Positions 1 to 9,182 of a DNA stretch of 9,182 nt are shown here, piece after piece. The first letter of the stretch is position 1. Each line of letters opens with the position of its first letter. The notes under the pieces were generated by a model. It was given only the letters and a program-made list of their open reading frames with translations. It was not told the DNA's origin and made no database searches. The DNA lies in the IMG/VR virus record IMGVR_UViG_2651869781_000012. One strand, 5' to 3'. The translations under genes and the position numbers were made by a program. Source of the DNA: a virus. Lineage: Duplodnaviria; Heunggongvirae; Uroviricota; Caudoviricetes.

Positions 1-251
1 GGTCATGGCCTCCATAGTGATGGCGGGTCCTCCTTGTGGGGTGCCCTGCCACGGGGCGGGAGCATCGCGGAAAAAGGCTAGTTTTTGCATTTTTATTCGT
101 CATCACCACCAATGCAATATATTGATATGACTTGATGTTTTATTTTTCGGTGTCGATTTCGATTGTTTTTTGTTCATCACTGACGCATAACGCCCACCAG
201 CGCAACGCTGAAAGCCAGTCAGTAAACTGGCTTCGGTCATTGTGCACTACG

Positions 252-794
252 TTACTTGTCTTTATCCGGCTGAAACTTATCAGGCACATTTCCGGTAGTT
301 TCCATCAGATAATCGGACAGCATTCGCGGGATGTTTTCATCAAGTTTTGTGCATGCGTTACAGGCTCTGACAACTTCTTTTTTCAGGCCATCCAGCATGA
401 CGGGGGTCATCTGTGGGAAGCTCCTTTGCATAGTAAGCGGGAGGCTGTCCATGATTGATGAAATCTGACTCGCCAGTTTTGAAAGCGCGTACATGCAAAA
501 CTCTGTATCAATCACGTCACCGCGATCGCGCTCGTTTTTAAGTTCCTGCGCCTCCGCCTGTGCTGTCAGTAATCTGATCCTGACTCGTAAGAGTTCATCA
601 TCATCAATCTCGCCTTTGTCGTTTGTAAGCTGGCTAATTGCATTGTTAACCCTATTGTCTATCACGCTGGCAACATCATAAAACGCCTCACGGCCTTTAC
701 GTTCAACGGGAGTCACTCCCCACTTGTCGAATGCTGTAGCACTTACCCGGCAGCTTTGCGCCATGGTTTTTTTGTTCATCAGGTGCGATTTCAT
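252..794 (-). CDS. Terminase small subunit, lambda Nu1-like
   Basis: 180-aa ORF. The C-terminal two thirds resemble lambda Nu1 as recalled from memory (ours ...LTAQAEAQELKNERD...FCMYALSKLASQISSIMDSLPLTMQRSFPQ...IPRMLSDYLMETTG versus lambda ...LTRAQADAQELKNARD...FCTFVLSRIAGEIASILDGLPLSVQRRFPE...IPGLLSEYIEQSG). The N-terminal HTH region is alignable but divergent. ATG at 794 is preceded by a weak GGGA; in-frame alternatives are TTG at 797 and ATG at 779 or 764. The gene starts about 135 bp downstream of cosN, as in lambda. Confidence 0.85.
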   Translation of the reverse strand: MKSHLMNKKTMAQSCRVSATAFDKWGVTPVERKGREAFYDVASVIDNRVNNAISQLTNDKGEIDDDELLRVRIRLLTAQAEAQELKNERDRGDVIDTEFCMYALSKLASQISSIMDSLPLTMQRSFPQMTPVMLDGLKKEVVRACNACTKLDENIPRMLSDYLMETTGNVPDKFQPDKDK

Positions 795-822
795 CAATAT
801 CCCAACTTGGTCAAGGTTTCAG

Positions 823-838
823 GTTGGTGTGTTGGTGT
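823..838. repeat. Tandem direct repeat GTTGGTGT x2 in the cosB-equivalent interval
   Basis: Plus strand 823-830 and 831-838 are both GTTGGTGT. A nearby (ACC)n tract lies at about 881-896. Both sit between cosN and the Nu1-like start. Confidence 0.5.
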
Positions 839-927
839 TATCTTTCCCTTTTTATTCATGGAGATAGAGCAAACAACAAAACCACCACCACCACCCTGAA
901 AAAGCTCATAAATAGCGAAAAACCGCG

Positions 928-939
928 AGGTCGCCGCCC
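928..939 (-). other. cosN-like cohesive-end site (lambda-type cos)
   Basis: The minus strand reads GGGCGGCGACCT, identical to the lambda 12-nt cohesive end as I recall it. Flanks on both sides also resemble lambda: cosQ side GGGTCCTTTCCGGCGATCCGGTAGGCTACG versus lambda GGGTCCTTTCCGGTGATCCGACAGGTTACG, and cosB side CGCGGTTTTTCGCTATTTATGA versus lambda CGCGGGTTTTCGCTATTTATGA. Confidence 0.8.
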
Positions 940-995
940 CGTAGCCTACCGGATCGCCGGAAAGGACCCGCCAGCCAGAACGGGCCCTAATTTCA

Positions 996-1379
996 TCAAC
1001 CAATCAACTTATAGCGACCATCCCGTGCATTGCGACGTACACGCTCAATCTTGAGGCATAGCGCCGCATCTGGCTTTTTTGGGACAGGTACGCGGCAATA
1101 TTCAGAAGCTCGAGGAATATTGTTTATCCAGTCGATCACTTCACTTAAATACCAGGCCTTACGCCCTTCCGTAACCTGTACGCGCTCGGGGAACTCTCCG
1201 CGAGCCTCAAGGTTTAGCAATGTGCGACGGCTAAGGGTAGTAAGTTCCATCACCTGATTCATATCAACAAGGCGTTCACTTAAACGCATTTTGTCAGCAA
1301 TAGCCTTTAATTCCTCTACTGCTGGATCCGGATACATCATTTCGGCAATTGGCTTAAGGTCATTGTAATGATTCTGCAT
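996..1379 (-). CDS. AlpA-family HTH DNA-binding protein (127 aa), function unknown
   Basis: Residues about 40-87 (LTTLSRRTLLNLEARGEFPERVQVTEGRKAWYLSEVIDWI) fit the AlpA/excisionase-type HTH pattern. SD AGGGGGA lies 4 nt upstream of ATG 1379. It starts 11 bp after the D-like stop and ends about 55 bp from cosN. Confidence 0.7.
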   Translation of the reverse strand: MQNHYNDLKPIAEMMYPDPAVEELKAIADKMRLSERLVDMNQVMELTTLSRRTLLNLEARGEFPERVQVTEGRKAWYLSEVIDWINNIPRASEYCRVPVPKKPDAALCLKIERVRRNARDGRYKLIG

Positions 1380-1390
1380 TGTATCCCCCT

Positions 1391-1732
1391 TTACACACGA
1401 GCCAGCGGCTGAACAGAAATACCTGAGCCAACAAACGCGGCAACCTTTGCCGACAGTTCTTTTACAGACTCAGGCCAGTTCAGAGCATCAACATTTAAAA
1501 CACCTGTCTTATAAACCTGTGCCTGTGTTTTTTTCGCTGTGTCGATTTGTACAGCGGAAACATAAACCGCTTTGCCTGCGCTCGTTCCATCCCATACCAC
1601 TAGCGCACCAGTTGCATCTTCCTGCATCAGTGGCGTAAACGCAGGTATTACCCCTTTATTGGCTGAAAATATCCCCAGCGTAGTAACCAGTGCTTCAGTG
1701 CCAGACATGAGTTCAGTGTAATGAGTAGCCAT
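1391..1732 (-). CDS. Head decoration protein, lambda gpD-like
   Basis: 113 aa. TPLMQEDATGALVVWDGTSAGKAVYVSAV and ...NWPESV...AAFVGSGISVQ parallel lambda gpD [29 protein letters not shown] and ...LWPEAA...TAFAGTAISIV (from memory). SD GGGGGAG precedes the ATG; the start is 9 bp after the capsid gene stop. Confidence 0.85.
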   Translation of the reverse strand: MATHYTELMSGTEALVTTLGIFSANKGVIPAFTPLMQEDATGALVVWDGTSAGKAVYVSAVQIDTAKKTQAQVYKTGVLNVDALNWPESVKELSAKVAAFVGSGISVQPLARV

Positions 1733-1741
1733 TGCTCCCCC

Positions 1742-2788
1742 TTAGCCAATGCGAACGGTAACAAAACGATTGATGCGGGCCGGTATTGGCTGTGGTGCTG
1801 AATGTGTCTGCACATATTCAATAGCCGGATCACCAGGCACAATATAGTTTTTCGGTACAAGTTCGGCTTTAGTCAGCCCCATCCGGATTAGCTCCGGATC
1901 CTGAATACCGCCATAAGCGACAATCCCCTGAAGAGCCGTATTGCCAAGCACCATCAAATCAGGATCAAGGAAATATTTTTCAGTTCCGTCCTCGTCGGTA
2001 TAACGCCCGCTGTAAACAACAATCGCAACATCGCCCATATACCCTTTAAAACTCACCGAATCACCAAGGTCTTTAAGGGCCGTTTCCAGTTCGGAATTAG
2101 AACCACGACGAGTATCCAGAGCCTCTTTTATCGCCCTGAATGAACGGTATTTCTTCCATACATTACCGCCCATAATGATAATATTAGTGACGCCCTCACT
2201 AAATTCTGCGTAGCTCTCAATATCATCATTTGGATCAAAAGCTTCTTTATCCTTACCTGACCACTCAGCACCGCCAGACTGAGTGATGATATTTTGTGGT
2301 TTAATATTCCAGTCCAGCTCATAACGTTCAATACCATCGCCCTCAATGATATTTTTCCCCGTTGTGATTGCCTGAACGGCAAGCCATTCAATACGTGCAC
2401 GAATAGCTTTAGCCTGATTTACAATCGCCTGTTTAACTTTAATATTACGCGCTCCAAAAGCATTGTATTGCTCAGGTGATACACCAGCAGGGCGCACAGC
2501 TAACTTATTTGGATCAATGCTGCTTTTCGGTTTCATATAGCCAGGGCGAATTGTTTTTGATTCGTATCCCTCATCTCGTGAAACTTTACTGCCCACCATA
2601 GGAGAGCAAAACGCCGCGATCGGGATATTTGGATCGTCGATCGTATCAAGAATAATGTCTCTCGATTCAAACATTACCGAGCGAGTGAAAAACAAACTGG
2701 TAAACAACGCATTTAATTTTTTTTGCACATCTTCAGCATTAGCCACCTGCACAAGCTGTGTAGGCGAATATAAGTCAACCATACTCAT
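1742..2788 (-). CDS. Major capsid protein, lambda gpE-like
   Basis: Long identical runs with lambda gpE as recalled (ITQSGG.EWS..DK...DP.DDIE.YA...GV.NII, FRSF.A.KE.LDTRRGSNSELETA.KDLG..VS.KG..GDVAIVVYSG.Y, MVLGNT). Both proteins begin MSM. Start at 2788 (MSM) or 2782; AAGAGG sits 6 nt upstream of 2782. The six-frame ORF's 5' extension to 2869 is unlikely to be coding. Confidence 0.9.
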   Translation of the reverse strand: MSMVDLYSPTQLVQVANAEDVQKKLNALFTSLFFTRSVMFESRDIILDTIDDPNIPIAAFCSPMVGSKVSRDEGYESKTIRPGYMKPKSSIDPNKLAVRPAGVSPEQYNAFGARNIKVKQAIVNQAKAIRARIEWLAVQAITTGKNIIEGDGIERYELDWNIKPQNIITQSGGAEWSGKDKEAFDPNDDIESYAEFSEGVTNIIIMGGNVWKKYRSFRAIKEALDTRRGSNSELETALKDLGDSVSFKGYMGDVAIVVYSGRYTDEDGTEKYFLDPDLMVLGNTALQGIVAYGGIQDPELIRMGLTKAELVPKNYIVPGDPAIEYVQTHSAPQPIPARINRFVTVRIG

Positions 2789-2955
2789 CCTCTTTACATT
2801 CATTACAAATAATTGTGAATATATTCTATTACCGATGTCTGCTATGCGAATACATGCAACCAAGTGCAATGTTGTATAAAATATGCCGTGACAACTTCAG
2901 TGCTGATAATTCGTGTTAATGTATTTACTTCCTTTGGTCGGGATTTATGTAGCAT

Positions 2956-2994
2956 GCCGGAAAATCTATTTTTTTCCGGCATCTTTTTGTTTGC
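2956..2994. terminator. Candidate intrinsic terminator between the SSB-like gene and the head genes
   Basis: Stem GCCGGAAAA(2956-2964) / TTTTCCGGC(2972-2980) with a short loop, followed on the plus strand by ATCTTTTTGTTTG. The minus-strand version lacks a clean U-tract, so function for the SSB transcript is uncertain. Confidence 0.4.
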
Positions 2995-2999
2995 AGAAT

Positions 3000-3422
3000 T
3001 TAAAACGGTATATTATCGCCGTACGGATCATCATTCCCCGACTGTTGTTTTGCCCTGTTCAGTGCGTCAGTGGCCTGCCCCTGCTGGCCTTTTTTGCCGC
3101 CCGGTCGCGCTGTTCGCGCACTGATCACGCTGTCTGCGATAACCTGCCAGCCCTGCCGCGTTTCGCCGTTCTGGCCTGTCCACTGGCTTACCTGCATGTT
3201 ACCCGCCACGCTCACCAGTTCGCCTTTGTGGTGTTTTGCCAGTGCGTCGGCCTGTCTGCCAAACGCCAGGACGGATAACCACATCATCGCCGTTCCGTCA
3301 TCTGCCTGGCTGCACGGAAGGGGGACCGCCATACTAGCCATCGCCATTTGTGTACCCTTGCTGGTGGTCTTTAACTGCGGGTCAGCCACCAGCCGTCCGT
3401 AAGCCGCTATCTGTGCTGTCAT
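3000..3422 (-). CDS. Single-stranded DNA-binding protein (SSB)-like, OB-fold with C-terminal IPF tail
   Basis: 140 aa. The N-terminus (AAYGRLVADPQL...) and core (WLSVLAFGRQADALAKHHKGELVSVAGNMQVSQWTGQNGETRQGWQVIADSV) follow the SSB OB-fold pattern. A Gly/Gln-rich linker precedes a C-terminal ...DDPYGDNIPF, reminiscent of the E. coli SSB DDDIPF tail. The ATG overlaps the upstream stop (ATGA). Confidence 0.75.
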   Translation of the reverse strand: MTAQIAAYGRLVADPQLKTTSKGTQMAMASMAVPLPCSQADDGTAMMWLSVLAFGRQADALAKHHKGELVSVAGNMQVSQWTGQNGETRQGWQVIADSVISARTARPGGKKGQQGQATDALNRAKQQSGNDDPYGDNIPF

Positions 3423-3664
3423 GCTGTCTGCTCTCCGGTTTTAACGTTGATGGTTGTCACCTGTTCCGCTTCGGCAATCTCCCGTTCTGTCAGCGTGGCA
3501 AAGTTTGCAGCTGCCGTTGTCATGAATGCGCTAATCAGTTCGGGATGTGCTTTCGCATATCCTTCCCCGGCGTTGCGGTCGATGATTTTTATCGACACCC
3601 TTAACCAGTGTTCCGTCAAATCAAGGGCGTGCGATTGTGATTTTTTTGTGTGCTTCGCTGTCAT
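3419..3664 (-). CDS. Hypothetical protein (81 aa), translationally coupled to the SSB-like gene
   Basis: ORF in the same operon orientation with a stop/start ATGA overlap at 3419-3422. No recognisable motif; the upstream SD is weak. Confidence 0.55.
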   Translation of the reverse strand: MTAKHTKKSQSHALDLTEHWLRVSIKIIDRNAGEGYAKAHPELISAFMTTAAANFATLTEREIAEAEQVTTINVKTGEQTA

Positions 3665-3707
3665 AGGCTTTATCTCACAGCAGTAAATTAAAATTTTTGC
3701 GTTTTAA

Positions 3708-3940
3708 CCCTTCACCTGTTCACCTTTTGATATTTTATCTTTTAATTCATAATGTTAAGGGGTGAACAGTTTCACAAAAACTATTCACCAACTGTTCACC
3801 ACTGTTCACCCTTGAAGCTCAATAAACAATCAAAAAGGTGAACAGTGAATAGTTTGGTGAACAGTTCATAAATAACTGTTCACCCTATAATATACTGATA
3901 TAAAAGATATTTATAACAGGGTGAACAGTGGTGAACAGTT
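3708..3940. repeat. Iteron cluster, P4-type origin-like (TGTTCACC octamers in both orientations)
   Basis: TGTTCACC at 3717-3724, 3793-3800, 3803-3810 and 3877-3884. Reverse complement GGTGAACA(G) at 3761-3769, 3837-3845, 3856-3864, 3920-3928 and 3930-3938. Degenerate copies near 3708-3716 and 3783-3789. AT-rich spacers; begins immediately after the primase stop at 3952. Confidence 0.7.
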
Positions 3941-3951
3941 ATTCCATAAGT

Positions 3952-5769
3952 TTAATTTTTGCTATCGTCATTAGTGACCGATACACATGATGGCATCCAG
4001 TCTTCTGATTCCTCCGTCAGTGTCACGTTTGAACGCAAACCGTGCTTCGTTTTCCGTTTCATATACTCCCTGCCATATTCCGCCATTGCCCCCGGCATAT
4101 CTTTACCGAAGCGCGTCAGTGTTACAGGTTTACCAAACCCATGTGCCTTCATATAAGCCAGATAGGCATGATAGAGATACCTGCGCGGGCTGAATGGCAC
4201 AATTTCAGCATTACCCACTAACAGGCCATCACACATTACCGACGCCATGAGATAGCCGCAGAAGTCCACCAGCGAATCACCTTCACGCTTTATCGCGAGT
4301 GCTTCTTCTGATTTCTGCTGCTCATATAAAAGGCGTCTGGCTTCGTCCTGGTCAGCAAACCGTGTAAGCAGATGACGAATCACTACCGCCAGCTCACCTT
4401 CTATTTTTTCCGCCAGCATTGAATCGCGTTCGTTCTCCGGTACAACTTCCGAAAAATTGAATATCACCCGACGGCGCGAGATCCCCCCACTGCGGTCACT
4501 GAATGACATAGCGTTATTGTTAACCGCCAGCACTACTGCCGGGATACGCGTTGAATATGGGGCTTTATGTTTCGGGTCGATTGCCACCTTGTCACCGCCT
4601 GTAATAGCCTTAATTCCCGCCCCATCACCAGCGTAGCGGGTCATATCCGGCATGATAATCAGCGAAAAGCCAACCACTAACGCGCGTTCCCTTGCATCTT
4701 CCAGCGCCTTCATGCTCGCTGATACTGTATTAGCCTTACCCGCCAGCATGGTGCAAATCTCCGCCATCACGCTTTTACCACTTCCCCCTGGACCTGTTAC
4801 CTCAATGAATAACTGCCAGTCGTACCGGTTCGCCAGCACCATGAATAATGCAGCCAGTACGCGATCCGCCTTGCGGTCATTCTCAGCCACCGAACGGCGT
4901 AACCACTTCCAGAAATTCGGCGCATGTGTTGCCAGCGTTTCCCCCTCTGCTGGTGGGCTGAAAGGTAATTCACTGGCAATTAACAACCAGTCGTTTTTGT
5001 TATGCTCCCGAAAATTACCTGTTCTGGTATCAAATACCCCGTTACTGAATCCAATCAGGTTACGGGCTGTATTCCCCATTACAGGCAAACTTAACTTCAT
5101 GGTATCGACCGCCGATTTAATGGCGTTCTGCGAATAGCTGATCTCCGCATCAATGAAAATCTGCGCCATAGCACGCTGTAACTCTTTATCCTGAACCGGC
5201 TCCCATACAACGCCGTTGTAATGGTGAACAGTGTCAGAGTCGGCATGAATCGCCAGTTCACCGCCATAATGTGCCAGGAGAACTTCGCCGCGTTGACTTG
5301 CTCCCATCTGGTTAAGCGCCAGTGATGAAGCGTTATCGTCTTTTACCCGCTCTTTTTTCTTTACAGGCAGTTCAACTACCTTTTTCTTTTCCGCCAGCTC
5401 TCCCCGCTCACGTTCCAGATATTCGCGCCAGTTCTCCCGTTTCTGGCTGTGCATTCCTTCAGGGTAATAATCAGCATCCCTGACACCTGCCGCTGCCAGT
5501 TTCTGCCCGATGGTATTAACAAGCCCCGGACGCAATAACCCCGCCTGGTAGAGACGCACGCGATAGCGTCCGTCCGGTACGATTTGCAGGTTGTCCAGTT
5601 CGGCAAGTTGTTGCTCTCCAAGCCAGACAGGTGGCACGTTATCGCCAGCCAGTCGCCCGTCCTGTTCCTGCCACTGCTTCGCATGTGCCCACGCATCACT
5701 ACCCGCAAAAATGATGACTTCCGTCATTTTGTCACGCGGCTGGTGTTTTAAATTTGGCGCTTTTTTCAT
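3952..5769 (-). CDS. Phage/plasmid primase-helicase, P4 alpha-like (SF3 helicase domain)
   Basis: About 605 aa. Walker A GPGGSGKS lies in the context FIEVTGPGGSGKSVMAEI, typical of P4-family primase C-terminal/D5-type helicase domains. ATG 5769 has GGAGAGAG upstream and overlaps the upstream gene stop (ATGA). The six-frame track start at 5784 is a GTG. Confidence 0.9.
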   Translation of the reverse strand: MKKAPNLKHQPRDKMTEVIIFAGSDAWAHAKQWQEQDGRLAGDNVPPVWLGEQQLAELDNLQIVPDGRYRVRLYQAGLLRPGLVNTIGQKLAAAGVRDADYYPEGMHSQKRENWREYLERERGELAEKKKVVELPVKKKERVKDDNASSLALNQMGASQRGEVLLAHYGGELAIHADSDTVHHYNGVVWEPVQDKELQRAMAQIFIDAEISYSQNAIKSAVDTMKLSLPVMGNTARNLIGFSNGVFDTRTGNFREHNKNDWLLIASELPFSPPAEGETLATHAPNFWKWLRRSVAENDRKADRVLAALFMVLANRYDWQLFIEVTGPGGSGKSVMAEICTMLAGKANTVSASMKALEDARERALVVGFSLIIMPDMTRYAGDGAGIKAITGGDKVAIDPKHKAPYSTRIPAVVLAVNNNAMSFSDRSGGISRRRVIFNFSEVVPENERDSMLAEKIEGELAVVIRHLLTRFADQDEARRLLYEQQKSEEALAIKREGDSLVDFCGYLMASVMCDGLLVGNAEIVPFSPRRYLYHAYLAYMKAHGFGKPVTLTRFGKDMPGAMAEYGREYMKRKTKHGLRSNVTLTEESEDWMPSCVSVTNDDSKN

Positions 5770-6065
5770 TTCTGCTCTCTCCACGCGGCAATCATGTTTT
5801 TCAGTTCCTGTAGTTTTTTATCCACATCCACACGTGACACATGGTTATTTCTGGAAGTCGGGATTTCCCGCCGGAATCTGCAAATAAAGATCTCCACGTT
5901 CAGCGAACTAAGAAATGAATATCCATCACGGATAAAATAAACACGGTCAAACATCAGTTCTTTTACCGTTACTCTGTTACCGTTCTTATCCAGATAAATA
6001 GCGCCGGGGATAATTTTGTGGTGTGCATAACCGCTGGCAGTCAAGCCAGATAAATATGTTCTCAT
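5766..6065 (-). CDS. Hypothetical protein (99 aa), operon member upstream of the primase
   Basis: ATG 6065 with GGGGA upstream; its stop overlaps the primase start. No recognisable motif. Confidence 0.6.
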   Translation of the reverse strand: MRTYLSGLTASGYAHHKIIPGAIYLDKNGNRVTVKELMFDRVYFIRDGYSFLSSLNVEIFICRFRREIPTSRNNHVSRVDVDKKLQELKNMIAAWREQK

Positions 6066-6071
6066 GATTAT

Positions 6072-6392
6072 TTATCCCCGATTTGAATCAGTATTCGCTT
6101 TCTTTATGGCATTTAATGCATCTGTGGCATTTTCAATGGTGCACCGTAACGAAATATCAAACTGCCCAAGCATTGCCAGTAACAAACCGATATTACCCAT
6201 ATCAATGCGCATGGCCTTTTCGTCATAGTCCTCATTTTCTGACGCATGCCACATCAGGCTACCAATTGACGCAATACCCATTGATATATTGTCAGTAGCC
6301 CCATCCGCAGCGGAATAAACCTTTTTAGCAATATCATGCTCACAGTTAAAATGCGGATTAATCAGGTACTGGTAACTGGTCATGTCAGGCAT
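6072..6392 (-). CDS. Hypothetical protein (106 aa)
   Basis: ATG 6392 is preceded by AGGGGG at 6 nt spacing and overlaps the upstream ORF stop by 8 nt. No recognisable motif. Confidence 0.6.
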   Translation of the reverse strand: MPDMTSYQYLINPHFNCEHDIAKKVYSAADGATDNISMGIASIGSLMWHASENEDYDEKAMRIDMGNIGLLLAMLGQFDISLRCTIENATDALNAIKKANTDSNRG

Positions 6393-6588
6393 GGAACACC
6401 CCCTGACGAATACGGGCAGTAAATACCATCACGCAGCCATCAGGAGATTGCTGGCGAGCTTCCTGTTCGCTGGTGGCCTCAATGTGAATCACGCGCGGTT
6501 GTGCGGTGCTCAGGGCGATAAAACGCCAGATGTATTTATTCAGGTTGTGCGAGTCCCGCCCTTGCGGGTGTGTGGTATGATTTAACAT
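6385..6588 (-). CDS. Hypothetical protein (67 aa), first gene of the primase operon
   Basis: ATG 6588 is preceded by GAGGT at 4 nt spacing. This is the C-terminal 67 codons of the 306-aa six-frame ORF, whose upstream part overlaps the plus-strand genes and promoter region and is probably not coding. Confidence 0.5.
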   Translation of the reverse strand: MLNHTTHPQGRDSHNLNKYIWRFIALSTAQPRVIHIEATSEQEARQQSPDGCVMVFTARIRQGVFHA

Positions 6589-6673
6589 AGCTACCTCGAT
6601 ACGCTTTCTATCGTTGGTGGTTAGAAGCCCTGCGAGTGGTAACGACACTTGCGGGGCTTTGCATTTATGCACC

Positions 6674-6757
6674 TTGACAACCTCAAGGTGTGGCCCACTA
6701 CATTCTTTAGGTGTGGCCCACGTCAAGAGTTTTATTTGTGCTTTTTCTGTGTATACT
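6674..6757 (+). promoter_or_regulatory. Divergent promoter/operator region with two copies of GGTGTGGCCCAC
   Basis: TTGACA at 6674-6679. Direct repeats GGTGTGGCCCAC at 6687-6698 and 6710-6721, each containing the near-palindrome GTGGCCCAC. TATACT at 6752-6757 lies about 30 bp upstream of the RHH gene ATG. The region sits between divergently oriented genes at 6588 (-) and 6788 (+). Confidence 0.4.
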
Positions 6758-6787
6758 GTCCCCCACCAATCCAACAGAGGAATAGAA

Positions 6788-6967
6788 ATGGCAACGGGTA
6801 CAACAAACGCAAAATCACAAGCTCTAAAGGCTCGTGTACCACACGAAATAGTAAACGCCATGGAATCAGTGAAAGAATCAGGCGAAAGCACATCACAATT
6901 CATCATTGCGTCAATGCAAGGCGAGATCAAACGCCGCCAGCGACGCAAAGCCAAGGAGTCAGAATAA
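6788..6967 (+). CDS. Ribbon-helix-helix (CopG/Arc-like) DNA-binding protein, 59 aa
   Basis: AGAGG at 6776-6780 precedes ATG 6788. The sequence KSQALKARVPHEIVNAMESVKESGESTSQFIIASMQGEIKRRQRR fits a beta-strand plus two helices RHH layout. Transcribed divergently from the primase operon. Confidence 0.6.
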   Translation: MATGTTNAKSQALKARVPHEIVNAMESVKESGESTSQFIIASMQGEIKRRQRRKAKESE

Positions 6968-7024
6968 TCACTATCAGCGCCGTGGTGTGAGTAACTACGG
7001 CGCATTGCTATGCAGGTGCTTACC

Positions 7025-7204
7025 ATGAACGATAAAGAGTTAAAAAAAACACCACCACAAACACTGAAAGGACAGCGCAAAAAGATAGCGCATGAGCATG
7101 AATCAGAAAGATTCGCCCCCTGTTCTTTTGCTCTTGAGAAATTCCTTAAGGAGCACAAGAAAAAGCTATCATTGCAAACCTGGGAACGAACCGAATCTGA
7201 CTGA
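7025..7204 (+). CDS. Hypothetical small lysine-rich protein (59 aa); coding status uncertain
   Basis: ATG 7025 is preceded by AGGTG (7014-7018). It lies between the RHH gene and the plus-strand terminator. Highly charged, no recognisable motif. An alternative ATG is at 7010. Confidence 0.3.
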   Translation: MNDKELKKTPPQTLKGQRKKIAHEHESERFAPCSFALEKFLKEHKKKLSLQTWERTESD

Positions 7205-7268
7205 TCAAATTGCCCACCAGCCAGCAAATCGCTATGATGTTCGGGCTTATGTTTAGTGTTTTCCCATT

Positions 7269-7297
7269 GGCGACCGCCCCCGGTCGCCTTTGTTTTA
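7269..7297 (+). terminator. Rho-independent terminator
   Basis: Stem GGCGACCG(7269-7276), loop CCCC, stem CGGTCGCC(7281-7288), then TTTGTTTT(7289-7296). It lies between convergent plus-strand genes and the alpA stop at 7316. Confidence 0.6.
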
Positions 7298-7315
7298 TAT
7301 GTCATATGCTCCCCT

Positions 7316-7525
7316 TTACGCTGCCTTACCTGAATTAATGCGATCCCGGCTTTTAACCCATTCCATAACCTCGGACAGCAGCCAACCTACAGAACGCCCC
7401 CCCAGATTAAGACGTGACGGAAAGCATCCTTTTTTCTCCAGTTCATAGCGTGTAGTGCGACACACTCCAGTTAACTTACGACATTCATCCTCACGGATTA
7501 CGCGATCTTCATTTATTTCACGCAT
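7316..7525 (-). CDS. alpA: AlpA-family transcriptional regulator
   Basis: 69 aa. LTGVCRTTRYELEKKGCFPSRLNLGGRSVGWLLSEVMEWV matches the AlpA HTH pattern. Same orientation as the integrase, with an AT-rich upstream region. Confidence 0.85.
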   Translation of the reverse strand: MREINEDRVIREDECRKLTGVCRTTRYELEKKGCFPSRLNLGGRSVGWLLSEVMEWVKSRDRINSGKAA

Positions 7526-7943
7526 ACAAAAACCTACATAAAAATTACGTATATAAACTTTTCTCTTAGCTGTAGATATATGAGACCGGATATTACTTAG
7601 ATTCTTTTTTCACCTCTTAAATTAAAAACACAACCTTGCTAAAGGCTTTGTTCGCTAAGGTTCGTAGAAGCTCGTTAGTGTTTAAAATCGTGTCACGAGT
7701 TTTTAAGCGACGCAACAAAAAATGTCGTCATTTGGCATTACGCTTGAATTATCTCATTAAAAACAAATAGATAAACCATCAAGTGTTGGAACAATCAAGA
7801 AACAGAGAATAAAAACTCAGAAGAAGACATTCCAATTTTTTGATGGTTAACATATATAAAGCGAAGATATTTGCAGATATTTTCCGATATTCTACGATTT
7901 ATTCACGGCTGTAATCTCTTAAAGAAAAAACAGCCGTAATTTG

Positions 7944-9182
7944 TCAAGAATTTTGGGTGTAAATTCGCGGGGCCATAACAACGATTTTTTCATCATTGTT
8001 CTGGAGAAGCTCGAGACGGTCTACCCATAGATTAAGAGCATCACGTTTTGCATCAAGATAACGGGAGTGATTATAGACTCGTTGCATCCCCGGCATCTGG
8101 TGGGCGGTAAGCTGCTCGACAATATGCGGATCCACGCCTAAATCGTTCAGCATGGTTGTAAATGTGTGCCGGATGTCATGCAACGACCAAGGGGCTTGAT
8201 TAATGCGTCTGTGTGCCGTTCTTCCGTACTCTGATACGGATGATTGCCCTTTCAGTTCTCCAAGCAATAAGCCCGTGTGCCTGTTCTTCTCCACCAGCTT
8301 CGTGACGAACGGCAAAATGCTTTCCGGTATTGGCCTGAATATGGCGACCTTCGTTTTGCTGTGCTCCTTCGGTACTGTCCAGAGCATTTCTTTAAAATCC
8401 CACTCCTGCACCTCAGAGCGCCTTAGCTCGGTGGTACGGCATCCAAAAACAATCAGGAGGCGAATTAGGGCGCTGTAGTACGGCGGGAATATTTTGTCAT
8501 CCAGAGCGCGGAGTAATTCCCCAAGCTCCTTGTTTGTTAGTACGCGCTCGCTCACTTCTGCTTTTTTTCCCACATCACCGACAACCATATCATCAAGAAC
8601 GTTGCTGATTGCGTATCGTCGTTTTCGGCAGTACTTAAGCGCCTGTTTGCATACCTGTAGCAAAAATCCGGCAGATACCGGGCTTCGCTTTGCCATCTGG
8701 TCAAAACATGTCAACCAGTGCCGTAGCTCGCATTTTTCCAACGGCATAGCGCCAATCTGGCTGATTATGTGTTTATTGATCCGGCTTTTCAGTGATTCGT
8801 AGTCAGTGCGCTTTTCCTTTGCATACGATTCAAGCCAGTAAGTAAGCGCTTCCTTAACTGTCACGGGGGCTAACGCATCCTGTACAGCACGATTAAGCTC
8901 ATAGCGCGGATTTTTCCCCTCAGCCAGCCAGGCGCGACACTGTGCTGCTTTTTCCCTGGCTGCTTTCAGGCTCAGATCGGGATAATTGCCCAGTCTCAGA
9001 CGTTCCGGTGATACCTGCCTACCAGTTCCGGCCCTGTAAGTGAAATACCAGGTTAACAGGCCGCTGGTGGAATGTCTTACGCTAAGATTGCCACCGTCAT
9101 TAAAAAAGGCGTTTTTTGTGGTTGGTGATCCGCTTAATTTTCGTAAAAGAGTGTCGCTAAGTCTATGAATTGCGCTGCTCAT
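7944..9182 (-). CDS. int: Tyrosine recombinase / integrase, P4-type
   Basis: 412 aa. The N-terminal arm-binding-like region (DGGNLSVRHSTSGLLTWYFTYR...LGNYPDLSLKAAREKA) and C-terminal catalytic motifs (HDIRHTFTT; ...QRVYNHSRY) fit the family. The ATG is the last three bases of the window, so an upstream start cannot be excluded. Confidence 0.9.
   Translation of the reverse strand: MSSAIHRLSDTLLRKLSGSPTTKNAFFNDGGNLSVRHSTSGLLTWYFTYRAGTGRQVSPERLRLGNYPDLSLKAAREKAAQCRAWLAEGKNPRYELNRAVQDALAPVTVKEALTYWLESYAKEKRTDYESLKSRINKHIISQIGAMPLEKCELRHWLTCFDQMAKRSPVSAGFLLQVCKQALKYCRKRRYAISNVLDDMVVGDVGKKAEVSERVLTNKELGELLRALDDKIFPPYYSALIRLLIVFGCRTTELRRSEVQEWDFKEMLWTVPKEHSKTKVAIFRPIPESILPFVTKLVEKNRHTGLLLGELKGQSSVSEYGRTAHRRINQAPWSLHDIRHTFTTMLNDLGVDPHIVEQLTAHQMPGMQRVYNHSRYLDAKRDALNLWVDRLELLQNNDEKIVVMAPRIYTQNS

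Follow-up and report, generated by a model that had tools for sequence, protein, structure and literature searches.

The window, by which we mean the whole 9,182-nt stretch of DNA that was analyzed, carries every gene except one on its minus strand. The genes are intact and free of frameshifts, and the dN/dS values of the capsid, decoration, and terS genes (0.03–0.27) lie well below 1. Genes for integration, regulation, and accessory functions are found at the following positions:

7944..9182, minus strand: tyrosine integrase, cspD-clpS-specific (Pfam Phage_integrase and Arm-DNA-bind_3)
7316..7525, minus strand: AlpA, regulator and excision factor (Pfam Phage_AlpA, 9.1e-16)
6788..6967, plus strand: YlcI/YnfO family gene (59% identity to the protein annotated as YlcI/YnfO in L007)
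6385..6588, minus strand: Icd-like host cell division inhibitor gene
6072..6392, minus strand: conserved hypothetical protein of 106 aa (phrog_15327)
5766..6065, minus strand: DUF4222 protein (Pfam DUF4222)
3419..3664, minus strand: conserved hypothetical protein of 81 aa (phrog_1231)
3000..3422, minus strand: single-stranded DNA-binding protein (SSB; Pfam SSB, phrog_44)

The YlcI/YnfO family gene is the only plus-strand gene. The short Icd-like gene, which is annotated in RefSeq in L001, covers the C-terminal portion of an open frame that spans 6385–7305, and residues 258–301 of this longer ORF match NCBIfam phage_ICD_like. AlpA shares 45% identity with P4 Vis/ORF88. The DUF4222 gene is syntenic across all relatives examined, and the E. 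coli PICIs EcCICFT073 and EcCIIHE3034 both hold a gene at the position that matches the 81-aa hypothetical protein.

The replication module consists of two features:

3952..5784, minus strand: Pri-Rep, a P4-alpha-like SF3 helicase and origin-binding protein (Pfam D5_N, DUF5906, and Pox_D5; phrog_864; start at 5769 in RefSeq)
3706..3943, no strand assigned: replication origin, an AT-rich stretch in which (A)CTGTTCACC iterons occur in either orientation, nine of them exact and several more degenerate

Pri-Rep is 48% identical to residues 290–771 of P4 alpha and 49% identical to the EcCICFT073 protein. The octamer TGTTCACC, which in P4 carries the annotation "ori type 1 repeat", occurs 10 times in the window against an expectation of 0.36, and nine of these copies lie at 3717–3937, immediately 3′ of the replicase gene. 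This position agrees with that described for PICI origins, which lie 3′ of pri-rep.

These features raise the reading that the island is related to P4 and parasitizes a helper of the P2 type. The replicase core (the helicase/DNA-binding part of alpha), the iterons, the AlpA/Vis-type regulator, and a distantly related tyrosine integrase (23% identity) are indeed held in common with P4. The resemblance fails, however, on the P4 hijacking module. Searches of the window by tblastn for sid, psu, delta, epsilon, and cI returned no homolog, a P2/P4-type cos is absent, and the primase domain found at the N terminus of P4 alpha is missing from the replicase. The packaging signals are instead of the lambda and phi458 types, and the capsid and TerS genes belong to the lambda family, which makes a P4-like satellite extremely improbable.

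The packaging functions are gathered at the left end of the window:

906..969, minus strand: cos1 core, with cosQ (GGGTCCT, 963–969), cosN GGGCGGCGACCT (928–939), and an adjacent conserved block
800..927, minus strand: cosB1, a PICI-specific region between cosN1 and terS, with an inverted repeat (817–829/889–901) and a (GGT)n run
252..797, minus strand: terS, full-length Nu1-type small terminase subunit (Pfam Phage_Nu1, 9.8e-23; phrog_57; start at 794 in RefSeq)
22..184, plus strand: cos2, convergent with cos1, with a cosQ-like GGGTCCT (25–31), cosN GGGCGGGAGCAT (54–65), and a phage-type cosB flank of ~120 bp

The cosN1 sequence matches lambda cosN exactly, and the 64-bp block that runs from cosQ via cosN to TTTATGA is identical to lambda at 59 positions. 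cosB1, on the other hand, shares ~50% identity with lambda cosB, which is near background; it is 85–98% identical among TerS-type PICIs and at most 40% identical to its counterpart in the Rpp-type EcCICFT073. The type of cosB thus co-varies with the presence of a TerS or an Rpp. TerS and lambda Nu1, both 181 aa long, are 37% identical from end to end, the C-terminal region included. The closest phage homolog is N15 gp1 (47.5%), and a comparison with RppA found no similarity. The terS gene has a dN/dS of 0.10–0.27; in its product, 19 positions vary across the conserved N-terminal 120 aa and 32 across the variable C-terminal 60 aa. Relatives of this packaging module sit as insertions within lambdoid prophages with a Nu1 that is 99% identical to that of lambda. 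Judged by homology and co-variation only, TerS would bind its private cosB1 and recruit a lambda-type large terminase.

The cos2 site was overlooked in the first-pass annotation. It is 86–88% identical to the cos region directly upstream of terS in the phages phi458 and mEp460, and positions 54–92 of the window correspond to the left cohesive end (bases 1–39) in the linear Tritos (97.4%) and cdtI records. cosN2 is one base off the phage versions compared (GGGCGGGAGCAT versus ...GCGT). The TerS of phi458-type phages is only ~20% identical to that of the island. Two different phage packaging sites are therefore present on one island.

Between the packaging genes and the SSB gene lie two head gene homologs and a second AlpA-like gene:

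1742..2782, minus strand: major capsid protein homolog of the lambda E family, 346 aa (Pfam Phage_cap_E, phrog_29)
1391..1732, minus strand: head decoration protein homolog of the lambda D/SHP family (Pfam HDPD, phrog_49; PDB 1td0 match)
996..1379, minus strand: second AlpA-family wHTH protein, 127 aa (Pfam Phage_AlpA, phrog_2790; PDB 8c3t AlpA, 1.6e-10)

The capsid homolog is 42% identical to lambda E and 54% identical to c1499 of EcCICFT073, the crystal structure of which has been solved (3BQW), and the decoration homolog is 40% identical to lambda D. Their dN/dS values are 0.03–0.16 and 0.06–0.15, respectively. The second AlpA-like protein is unrelated to c1501 and RppA, with which it was compared. 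Its gene accompanies this capsid/decoration subtype and adjoins D and E in L006 as well, which is without terS.

Genes for a portal, protease, scaffold, TerL, tail, or lysis were not found in the window in a gene and Pfam/phrog survey. The first-pass annotation was accurate in this respect (it had named the portal, protease, scaffold, large terminase, and tail genes as missing), and the integrase, AlpA, alpha-like primase, iterons, cosN, Nu1, D, and E homologs it had reported are all present where it had placed them.

The att sites and flanks fall outside the window, and the chromosomal location is deduced from E. coli copies that are 96–97% identical to it. These near-identical copies span 10.47 kb, with clpS on one side and yljB/cspD on the other, and have the 11-bp direct repeats ATGATAGTTAT at their ends. 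The copy in strain W619 (97.3% identical to the window) is flanked by clpS and yljB/cspD with no contiguous prophage, so the element is a self-contained unit that does not belong to a prophage. Lambda-family head and terminase genes that lack the rest of a head operon might also be left over from a decayed lambdoid prophage, or might belong to one of two unrelated elements, head genes and an int/primase island, that happen to be adjacent. Such an origin is contradicted by the att-type repeats between housekeeping genes, by the recurrence of the same 10.5-kb unit in 83 complete genomes, by the gene order kept in EcCICFT073 and EcCIIHE3034, and by the intact state of the genes. The E, D, and Nu1 homologs evolve under constraint and are not pseudogene remnants. 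As the capsid protein is at most 41.5% and TerS at most 47.5% identical to any phage homolog, recent prophage debris is not a tenable description, and there is hardly any chance that either version is correct.

The window very probably represents ~88% of a Gram-negative PICI of the EcCICFT073/EcCIIHE3034 family, and specifically of its TerS-encoding subtype. It contains all five published PICI core modules, namely int, alpA, pri-rep with its ori, the capsid homolog, and terS, which make up the canonical proteobacterial architecture (PMC10085698). The gene arrangement is ordinary for a PICI family already described in E. coli and is not new. The first-pass annotation had not recognized the arrangement, although a PICI that occupies the same att site and encodes TerS, a capsid protein, and a decoration protein, EcCIIHE3034, had already been catalogued (PMC6092414). 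Its broader picture of a self-contained satellite, with P4-like integration and replication genes, a lambda-like cos/Nu1/D/E set, and a helper that supplies portal, protease, scaffold, TerL, and tails, is borne out.

EcCIIHE3034 (site cspD-clpS, att core ATGATAGTTAT, 10.5 kb; Fillol-Salom et al. 2018, ISME J, PMC6092414 Table S1) resembles the island in att site, att core, and size, as well as in its integrase (98%), AlpA (97%), TerS (87%), and cosB1 region (86%). Read from the RefSeq annotation of its locus, the gene order int, alpA, icd-like, DUF4222, pri-rep, ori, SSB, capsid, decoration, X, cos, terS, cos is that of the window. The two are nevertheless different mosaics of modules: the EcCIIHE3034 capsid is only 55% identical, the gene after decoration is c1501-like instead of AlpA-like, and the second cos is lambda-type instead of phi458-type.

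EcCICFT073, the prototype Gram-negative PICI (PMC6092414; PMC6739421), has the same architecture and synteny. Its capsid homolog c1499 and decoration homolog c1500 parallel the E/D pair of the window; it carries two inverted cos sites, with cosN and cosQ identical to those of lambda and a cosB that differs, and lambdoid phages serve as its helpers (lambda, phi80, and a resident prophage). It differs from the window in its cosB, in its integration site next to phoQ, and in encoding the TerS-binding adaptor Rpp (c1503) in place of TerS.

In helper-embedded PICIs (Eco567.11capE type; PMC10111431), the TerS, cos, HTH, D, E, SSB, and Pri-Rep modules are 93–96% identical to those of the window (L006, L008, L010). 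These elements belong to another integrase clade, are inserted into a lambdoid prophage within its E or B gene, often carry defence genes, and lack cos2 in those examined. Among SaPIs, cos1 with terS can be compared to the pac SaPIs, in which the satellite TerS and the helper TerL recognize satellite DNA, and cos2 to SaPIbov5, which carries the helper's own cos site (PMC6739421, PMC6092414). SaPIs, however, use unrelated proteins in Gram-positive hosts, and their TerS acts in headful (pac) and not in cos packaging. A Ppi homolog was not seen in the window.

The role of the E/D pair is less straightforward. The first-pass annotation had proposed that the island makes its own capsid shell. In EcCICFT073, deletion of c1499 or c1500 left transfer and interference unchanged, and lambda packaged only phage-sized DNA (PMC6092414), so an own shell is unsupported. 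The knock-outs concern an Rpp-type island with a capsid subtype 54–55% identical to that of the window, and small capsids were sought with lambda only. Spelled out, the proposal is a satellite type between classical PICIs and cf-PICIs, in which the E/D-like proteins form island-specific, possibly small capsids on the portal, scaffold, and protease of the helper, and the island TerS steers packaging into them. The two genes are intact, invariably occur together, and evolve under strong purifying selection; their products constitute a satellite lineage with no more than 41.5% identity to any capsid encoded in 50,697 phage records; and PmCI172, a further PICI that has a capsid homolog, produces small capsids. 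Yet the core cf-PICI parts (portal, protease, scaffold, head-tail connector, and TerL) are absent from the island, and a T=4 lambda-like head would be only ~60% full with a 10.47-kb monomer inside, as estimated from P4/P2 and SaPI/80alpha size ratios. Together with the EcCICFT073 deletions, this leaves partial capsid formation unlikely. The E-like and D-like genes are functional, and our best guess is that they modulate the assembly of helper heads or interfere with it, and do not build an autonomous shell. A dispensability model does not account for the strong purifying selection on both genes.

The life cycle of this PICI can be modeled on the tested relative EcCICFT073 and on lambda biology. 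A lambdoid helper would elicit AlpA-dependent excision and rightward transcription, after which the P4-alpha-like Pri-Rep would act on the TGTTCACC iterons and replicate the island into concatemers. The conserved N-terminal wHTH of TerS would then engage the private cosB1, while the Nu1-like C-terminal part would contact the lambda-type large terminase (gpA) of the helper. The large terminase is expected to nick the lambda-identical cosN1 and to use cosQ1 for termination. The DNA would enter helper-built heads, most likely as multimers, as four copies amount to 41.9 kb and lie within the lambda packaging range. The IHE3034 and 18098 islands also encode TerS, and in 2018 they were reported to transfer at ≤110 CFU per recipient once their resident prophages had been induced (PMC6092414). 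The candidate cos2, a near-copy of the complete phi458/mEp460-type cos, suggests a second helper: lambdoid phages of this type, which have an unrelated TerS, could probably package the island via cos2 with their own terminase and without any island factor.

The window is very probably a TerS-type Gram-negative PICI of the cspD-clpS site and a new mosaic of published modules. Its identity was determined from an E. coli genome collection, a phage collection, and the literature, with the PICI criteria taken from Fillol-Salom 2018 and the SatelliteFinder PICI model of de Sousa 2023. ORF and family scans place all of its genes on the minus strand, with the exception of YlcI:

7944-9182, minus strand: tyrosine integrase (Pfam Phage_integrase and Arm-DNA-bind_3)
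7316-7525, minus strand: AlpA, the regulator adjoining int
6788-6967, plus strand: small YlcI/YnfO gene
6385-6588, minus strand: Icd-like gene
6072-6392, minus strand: conserved hypothetical gene
5766-6065, minus strand: DUF4222 gene
3952-5784, minus strand: Pri-Rep, D5/SF3-type replication protein of 610 aa
3706-3943: iteron field constituting the origin, immediately 3' of the Pri-Rep gene
3419-3664, minus strand: small conserved gene
3000-3422, minus strand: SSB
1742-2782, minus strand: capsid gene (MCP) of the lambda-E family
1391-1732, minus strand: decoration gene (Dec) of the lambda-D family
996-1379, minus strand: second AlpA-family HTH gene (127-aa protein)
906-969, minus strand: cos1
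252-797, minus strand: terS, Nu1-family small terminase of 181 aa
22-184, plus strand: cos2

The tyrosine integrase takes up one end of the element, AlpA lies next to int, and the genes are essentially unidirectional. The primase-replicase module has its iteron origin immediately 3', capsid morphogenesis is represented by the E-like and D-like genes, and the small terminase homolog is accompanied by the two cos sites. The first-pass annotation had reported that portal, protease, scaffold, large terminase, and tail genes are lacking, and no ORF of the window matches these families or lysis families in the ORF and family scans. The element falls into the ~10-15 kb size class and has att repeats at a chromosomal site, as seen in the 10.47-kb copy of strain W619. 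PICIs share a core of an integrase, a regulator, a primase-replicase, a capsid-morphogenesis gene (frequent in Proteobacteria), and a small terminase (de Sousa et al. 2023, PMC10085698), and all five components are present in the window. A major capsid gene occurs in 21 of the 29 reference Gram-negative PICIs (helper-embedded-PICI paper, PMC10111431).

The published element EcCIIHE3034 is a 10.5-kb PICI at the cspD-clpS site with the att core ATGATAGTTAT (Table S1, Fillol-Salom et al. 2018, PMC6092414). The RefSeq annotation of its locus gives the same gene order as the window, including a ‘major capsid protein’, a ‘head decoration protein’, and a ‘terminase small subunit’. The integrase, AlpA, and TerS of EcCIIHE3034 are 98%, 97%, and 87% identical to those of the window, whereas the capsid proteins share merely 55% identity. 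EcCICFT073, the prototype Gram-negative PICI, is also syntenic with the window and carries its own pair of capsid (c1499) and decoration (c1500) genes. Given these matches to the published PICI core, EcCIIHE3034, and EcCICFT073, the arrangement, which the first-pass annotation had described as not recognised, is the standard proteobacterial PICI layout; the features that it had listed (cosN, iterons, Nu1/D/E homologs) are all found in the window. TerS is encoded by the IHE3034 and 18098 islands, and the TerS-type islands assayed in 2018 were barely transferred by their own resident prophages (PMC6092414).

The mosaic character is illustrated by the left 2.5 kb of the window, which is 100% identical to E. 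coli C 237-04, and by an integrase and AlpA that are as in EcCIIHE3034. At the same att site, the C 237-04 island carries a TerS-cos-HTH-D-E block with 100% identity to that of the window. Its replicase (12801-14924) is a 707-aa DUF927-domain protein and not P4-alpha-like. By sequence comparison, the two islands differ by a clean swap of their replication modules.

The whole window is matched at ≥80% coverage in 83 of 5,426 complete E. coli genomes, and the best match is 97.3% identical. In W619 the island is flanked by clpS on one side and yljB/cspD on the other and is bounded by two copies of ATGATAGTTAT located 10,468 bp apart. Missing from the window are ~1 kb of the island at the left, with a single 94-aa gene (no match in a PDB sequence search), and ~180 bp at the right. 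The W619 island has no prophage next to it. This removes the main scenario that the first-pass annotation had named against its self-contained island, namely a contiguous lambdoid prophage, and the flanking genes bear that proposal out. A prophage remnant is likewise rejected, as the island is bounded by ATGATAGTTAT repeats between clpS and cspD and its head genes are intact. Helper-embedded PICIs are inserted in a late gene of a lambdoid prophage; the full-length relatives of the window sit between clpS and cspD, and its integrase is of the cspD-clpS type.

The “P4-type backbone” proposed in the first-pass annotation holds for the replicon and fails as a description of a P4-like satellite. 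The octamer TGTTCACC is present in 10 copies compared to 0.36 expected, nine of them grouped immediately 3' of the replicase gene, and the P4 record annotates the same octamer as ‘ori type 1 repeat’. Pri-Rep is 48% identical to residues 290-771 of P4 alpha. The primase domain at the N-terminus of P4 alpha has no counterpart in it, and Pfam detects no primase catalytic domain. The sole match of its N-terminal ~117 aa (window 5434-5784) is phrog_2850, a family of unknown function. When all P4 proteins are compared to the window by tblastn, the matches are limited to int, alpha, and Vis, and sid, psu, delta, epsilon, and cI are absent. A P2-type cos or P4 cohesive end is also absent from the window. 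The two elements thus have in common the replicase core, the iterons, an AlpA/Vis homolog, and a distant integrase, and nothing more. With neither the hijacking module (sid, psu, delta, epsilon) nor a P2-type cos in the window, a P4-like satellite is rejected.

Several scans add little to this gene content. No RNA family is returned by Rfam for the whole window at E ≤ 0.1, promoter-like sites are fewer in the window than in shuffled sequence, NCBIfam yields no model for TerS, MCP, Dec, or HTH, and the small hypothetical proteins have no Pfam match. An open frame of 306 aa (6385-7305, minus strand) runs antisense across the YlcI/YnfO gene, and its Icd-like family match is confined to the last ~45 residues. 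It is probably an over-extended ORF; in relatives, a short icd-like gene or pseudogene fragments are annotated at this position. The segment from the icd-like gene to int differs in length by ~120 nt between the window and W619. The 217-bp gap between the SSB and capsid genes harbors a hairpin (2954-2982, 11-bp stem, ATGCCGGAAAA...TTTTCCGGCAT) and a weak sigma-70-like site (2850-2823, minus strand), which together could mark the boundary between a replication and a packaging operon.

The packaging module combines a lambda-like cos core with a terminase subunit of its own. The cos core had been described as identical to lambda cosN, and GGGCGGCGACCT indeed occurs once and exactly at 928-939 (minus strand). 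The cos1 block, which extends from cosQ GGGTCCT (963-969) through cosN to TTTATGA, agrees with lambda at 59 of 64 bases. According to the DNA alignments used for the cos comparisons, the region beyond the conserved cosN block (cosB1) is 85-98% identical among TerS-type islands, ≤40% identical to the Rpp-type EcCICFT073, and similar to lambda cosB at background level. It contains a conserved inverted repeat (817-829/889-901). One repeat arm includes a (GGT)n/(ACC)n run (window 885-899), which was compared with W619 (12790-12994); W619 is 6 bp (two units) short of the length shared by the window and C 237-04. The variation in length falls within the presumed TerS-binding region.

TerS is 37% identical to lambda Nu1 end to end, with 181 aa in both proteins. 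The closest phage TerS is gp1 of N15 (47.5%), with none higher among 50,697 phage records, and a PDB sequence search with TerS gives no match at E ≤ 0.01. Six TerS alleles vary at 19 of 120 N-terminal residues compared to 32 of 60 C-terminal residues (window 252-431). The N-terminal 120 residues would comprise the DNA-binding and oligomerisation regions, and the variable C-terminus may reflect adaptation to differing helper large terminases. [quoted passage not shown] The island TerS would therefore read a private cosB and borrow the TerL of the helper, a model that we infer from the cosB divergence, the allele variation, and the Nu1 C-terminal alignment. EcCICFT073, an Rpp-type cos PICI, resembles the window in that its cosN and cosQ are lambda-like and its cosB is foreign to the helper (PMC6092414, PMC6739421). 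It differs in using Rpp (c1503), which attaches to the TerS of the helper and redirects it to the island (PMC6739421), where the window has a complete Nu1 homolog instead; TerS-type islands are devoid of Rpp. TerS and the 127-aa HTH protein were both considered as Rpp and rejected, as neither shows similarity to RppA by BLASTP.

The second site, cos2, is absent from the first-pass annotation and lies on the opposite side of terS, convergent with cos1. In phages phi458 and mEp460, the segment immediately upstream of terS shares 86-88% identity with it. Window positions 54-92 match bases 1-39, the left cohesive ends, in the linear records of phages Tritos and cdtI, and the joined Tritos ends align through a GGGTCCT heptamer 29 nt upstream. 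The cosN of cos2 (GGGCGGGAGCAT) is one base off the version of those phages and four off that of lambda. The TerS of phi458/mEp460-type phages is only ~20% identical to that of the island. From the match to a phi458-type cos and an unrelated TerS, cos2 most likely allows the phi458/mEp460 lineage to package the island by means of its own holo-terminase. Mimicry of cos is known from SaPIbov5 (PMC6739421, PMC6092414). A second, inverted cos occupies this position in EcCIIHE3034 and EcCICFT073 as well, where it is of lambda type. The cos2 sequence is absent from the helper-embedded relatives examined, and the full cos2-terS-cos1 cassette is found in 94 genomes. The two-cos phenomenon in PICIs is already known, and the 2019 Rpp paper asks why two differing cos sites occur in some PICIs (PMC6739421); the literature searched yielded no description of the heterologous nature of the second cos.

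The TerS-cos-HTH-D-E module reaches ≥80% coverage in 264 genomes and occupies several chromosomal locations. Copies with 93-96% identity lie inside lambdoid prophages, within the E gene (L006 and L008) or the portal gene (L010), and a further copy (L009) lies beside tRNA-Pro and yejM. The three prophage-borne relatives match the helper-embedded PICIs of PMC10111431. Their accessory defence-like genes encode DUF262 with HEPN, Abi-family, TIR, and Bro-N domains. The Nu1 of the embedding prophages is 99% identical to that of lambda, including in E. coli KE47 (L008), where the embedded island (around 9545-9755) has the cohesive-end sequence GGGCGTCAGGCG in place of GGGCGGCGACCT of the window. The helper of the island would be lambda-type. 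The helpers of EcCICFT073 are lambda, phi80, and a resident lambdoid prophage (PMC6092414, PMC6739421), and its transfer requires int and alpA, with pri-rep being nearly essential (PMC6092414). Lambda packages exclusively phage-sized DNA with EcCICFT073 (PMC6092414). Four island copies would amount to 41.9 kb, or ~86% of the lambda genome, which is inside the packaging range accepted by lambda and agrees with this phage-sized DNA.

The capsid and decoration proteins are 42% and 40% identical to lambda E and D, and the Nu1, D, and E homologs named in the first-pass annotation are all present. That they might be pseudogene remnants is contradicted by MCP, Dec, and TerS being free of internal stops across six islands and by pairwise dN/dS values, computed from DNA alignments, of 0.03-0.16 for MCP, 0.06-0.15 for Dec, and 0.10-0.27 for TerS. 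Among the 50,697 phage records, no MCP is more than 41.5% identical to that of the island. Since no phage MCP exceeds this value and no phage TerS exceeds 47.5%, the two proteins read as old satellite-specific lineages and not as recent captures. PDB entry 3BQW (‘putative capsid protein of prophage’) seems to correspond to the product of c1499, as its alignment to the window protein covers the same residues and substitutions as that of the protein from the CFT073 locus. Next after the decoration gene comes a gene that tracks the capsid subtype, being AlpA-like in the window and L006 and c1501-like in CFT073 and IHE3034, which hints at a functional link. As a counterpart of c1501, the 127-aa HTH protein is rejected due to a lack of similarity.

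Deletion of c1499 or c1500 in EcCICFT073 leaves transfer and interference unchanged (PMC6092414). The leading guess is that the E/D pair would modulate, or interfere with, head assembly of the helper, in line with the analogy to SaPIbov5 Ccm drawn by the 2018 authors (PMC6092414). A cf-PICI is rejected, as the head and packaging set of the cf-PICI core (PMC10085698) is absent: TerL, portal, protease/scaffold, head-tail connectors, and HNH are missing from both the window and the full W619 island. A further reading, considered improbable, is that the island E/D proteins are built into capsids around its own DNA with a cognate helper only, either as own shells on the portal, scaffold, and protease of the helper or as mixed shells, and that the two heterologous cos sites let the island ride two lambdoid packaging machines. 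If true, TerS-type E. coli PICIs would stand between classical PICIs and cf-PICIs as a reduced class that is partly capsid-forming.

As a discovery, the window carries little weight: descriptions of its satellite class date back to 2018, SatelliteFinder picks it up, and annotations of it exist in hundreds of E. coli genomes. Two features retain some interest: a second cos that is heterologous, and a capsid/decoration pair whose conservation is unexplained. The former, as a recognisable copy from another lambdoid lineage, leads to a testable dual-helper hypothesis. The latter presents the field with a question: proteobacterial PICIs keep their capsid and decoration homologs under strong constraint, yet these were dispensable in the sole knock-out test.
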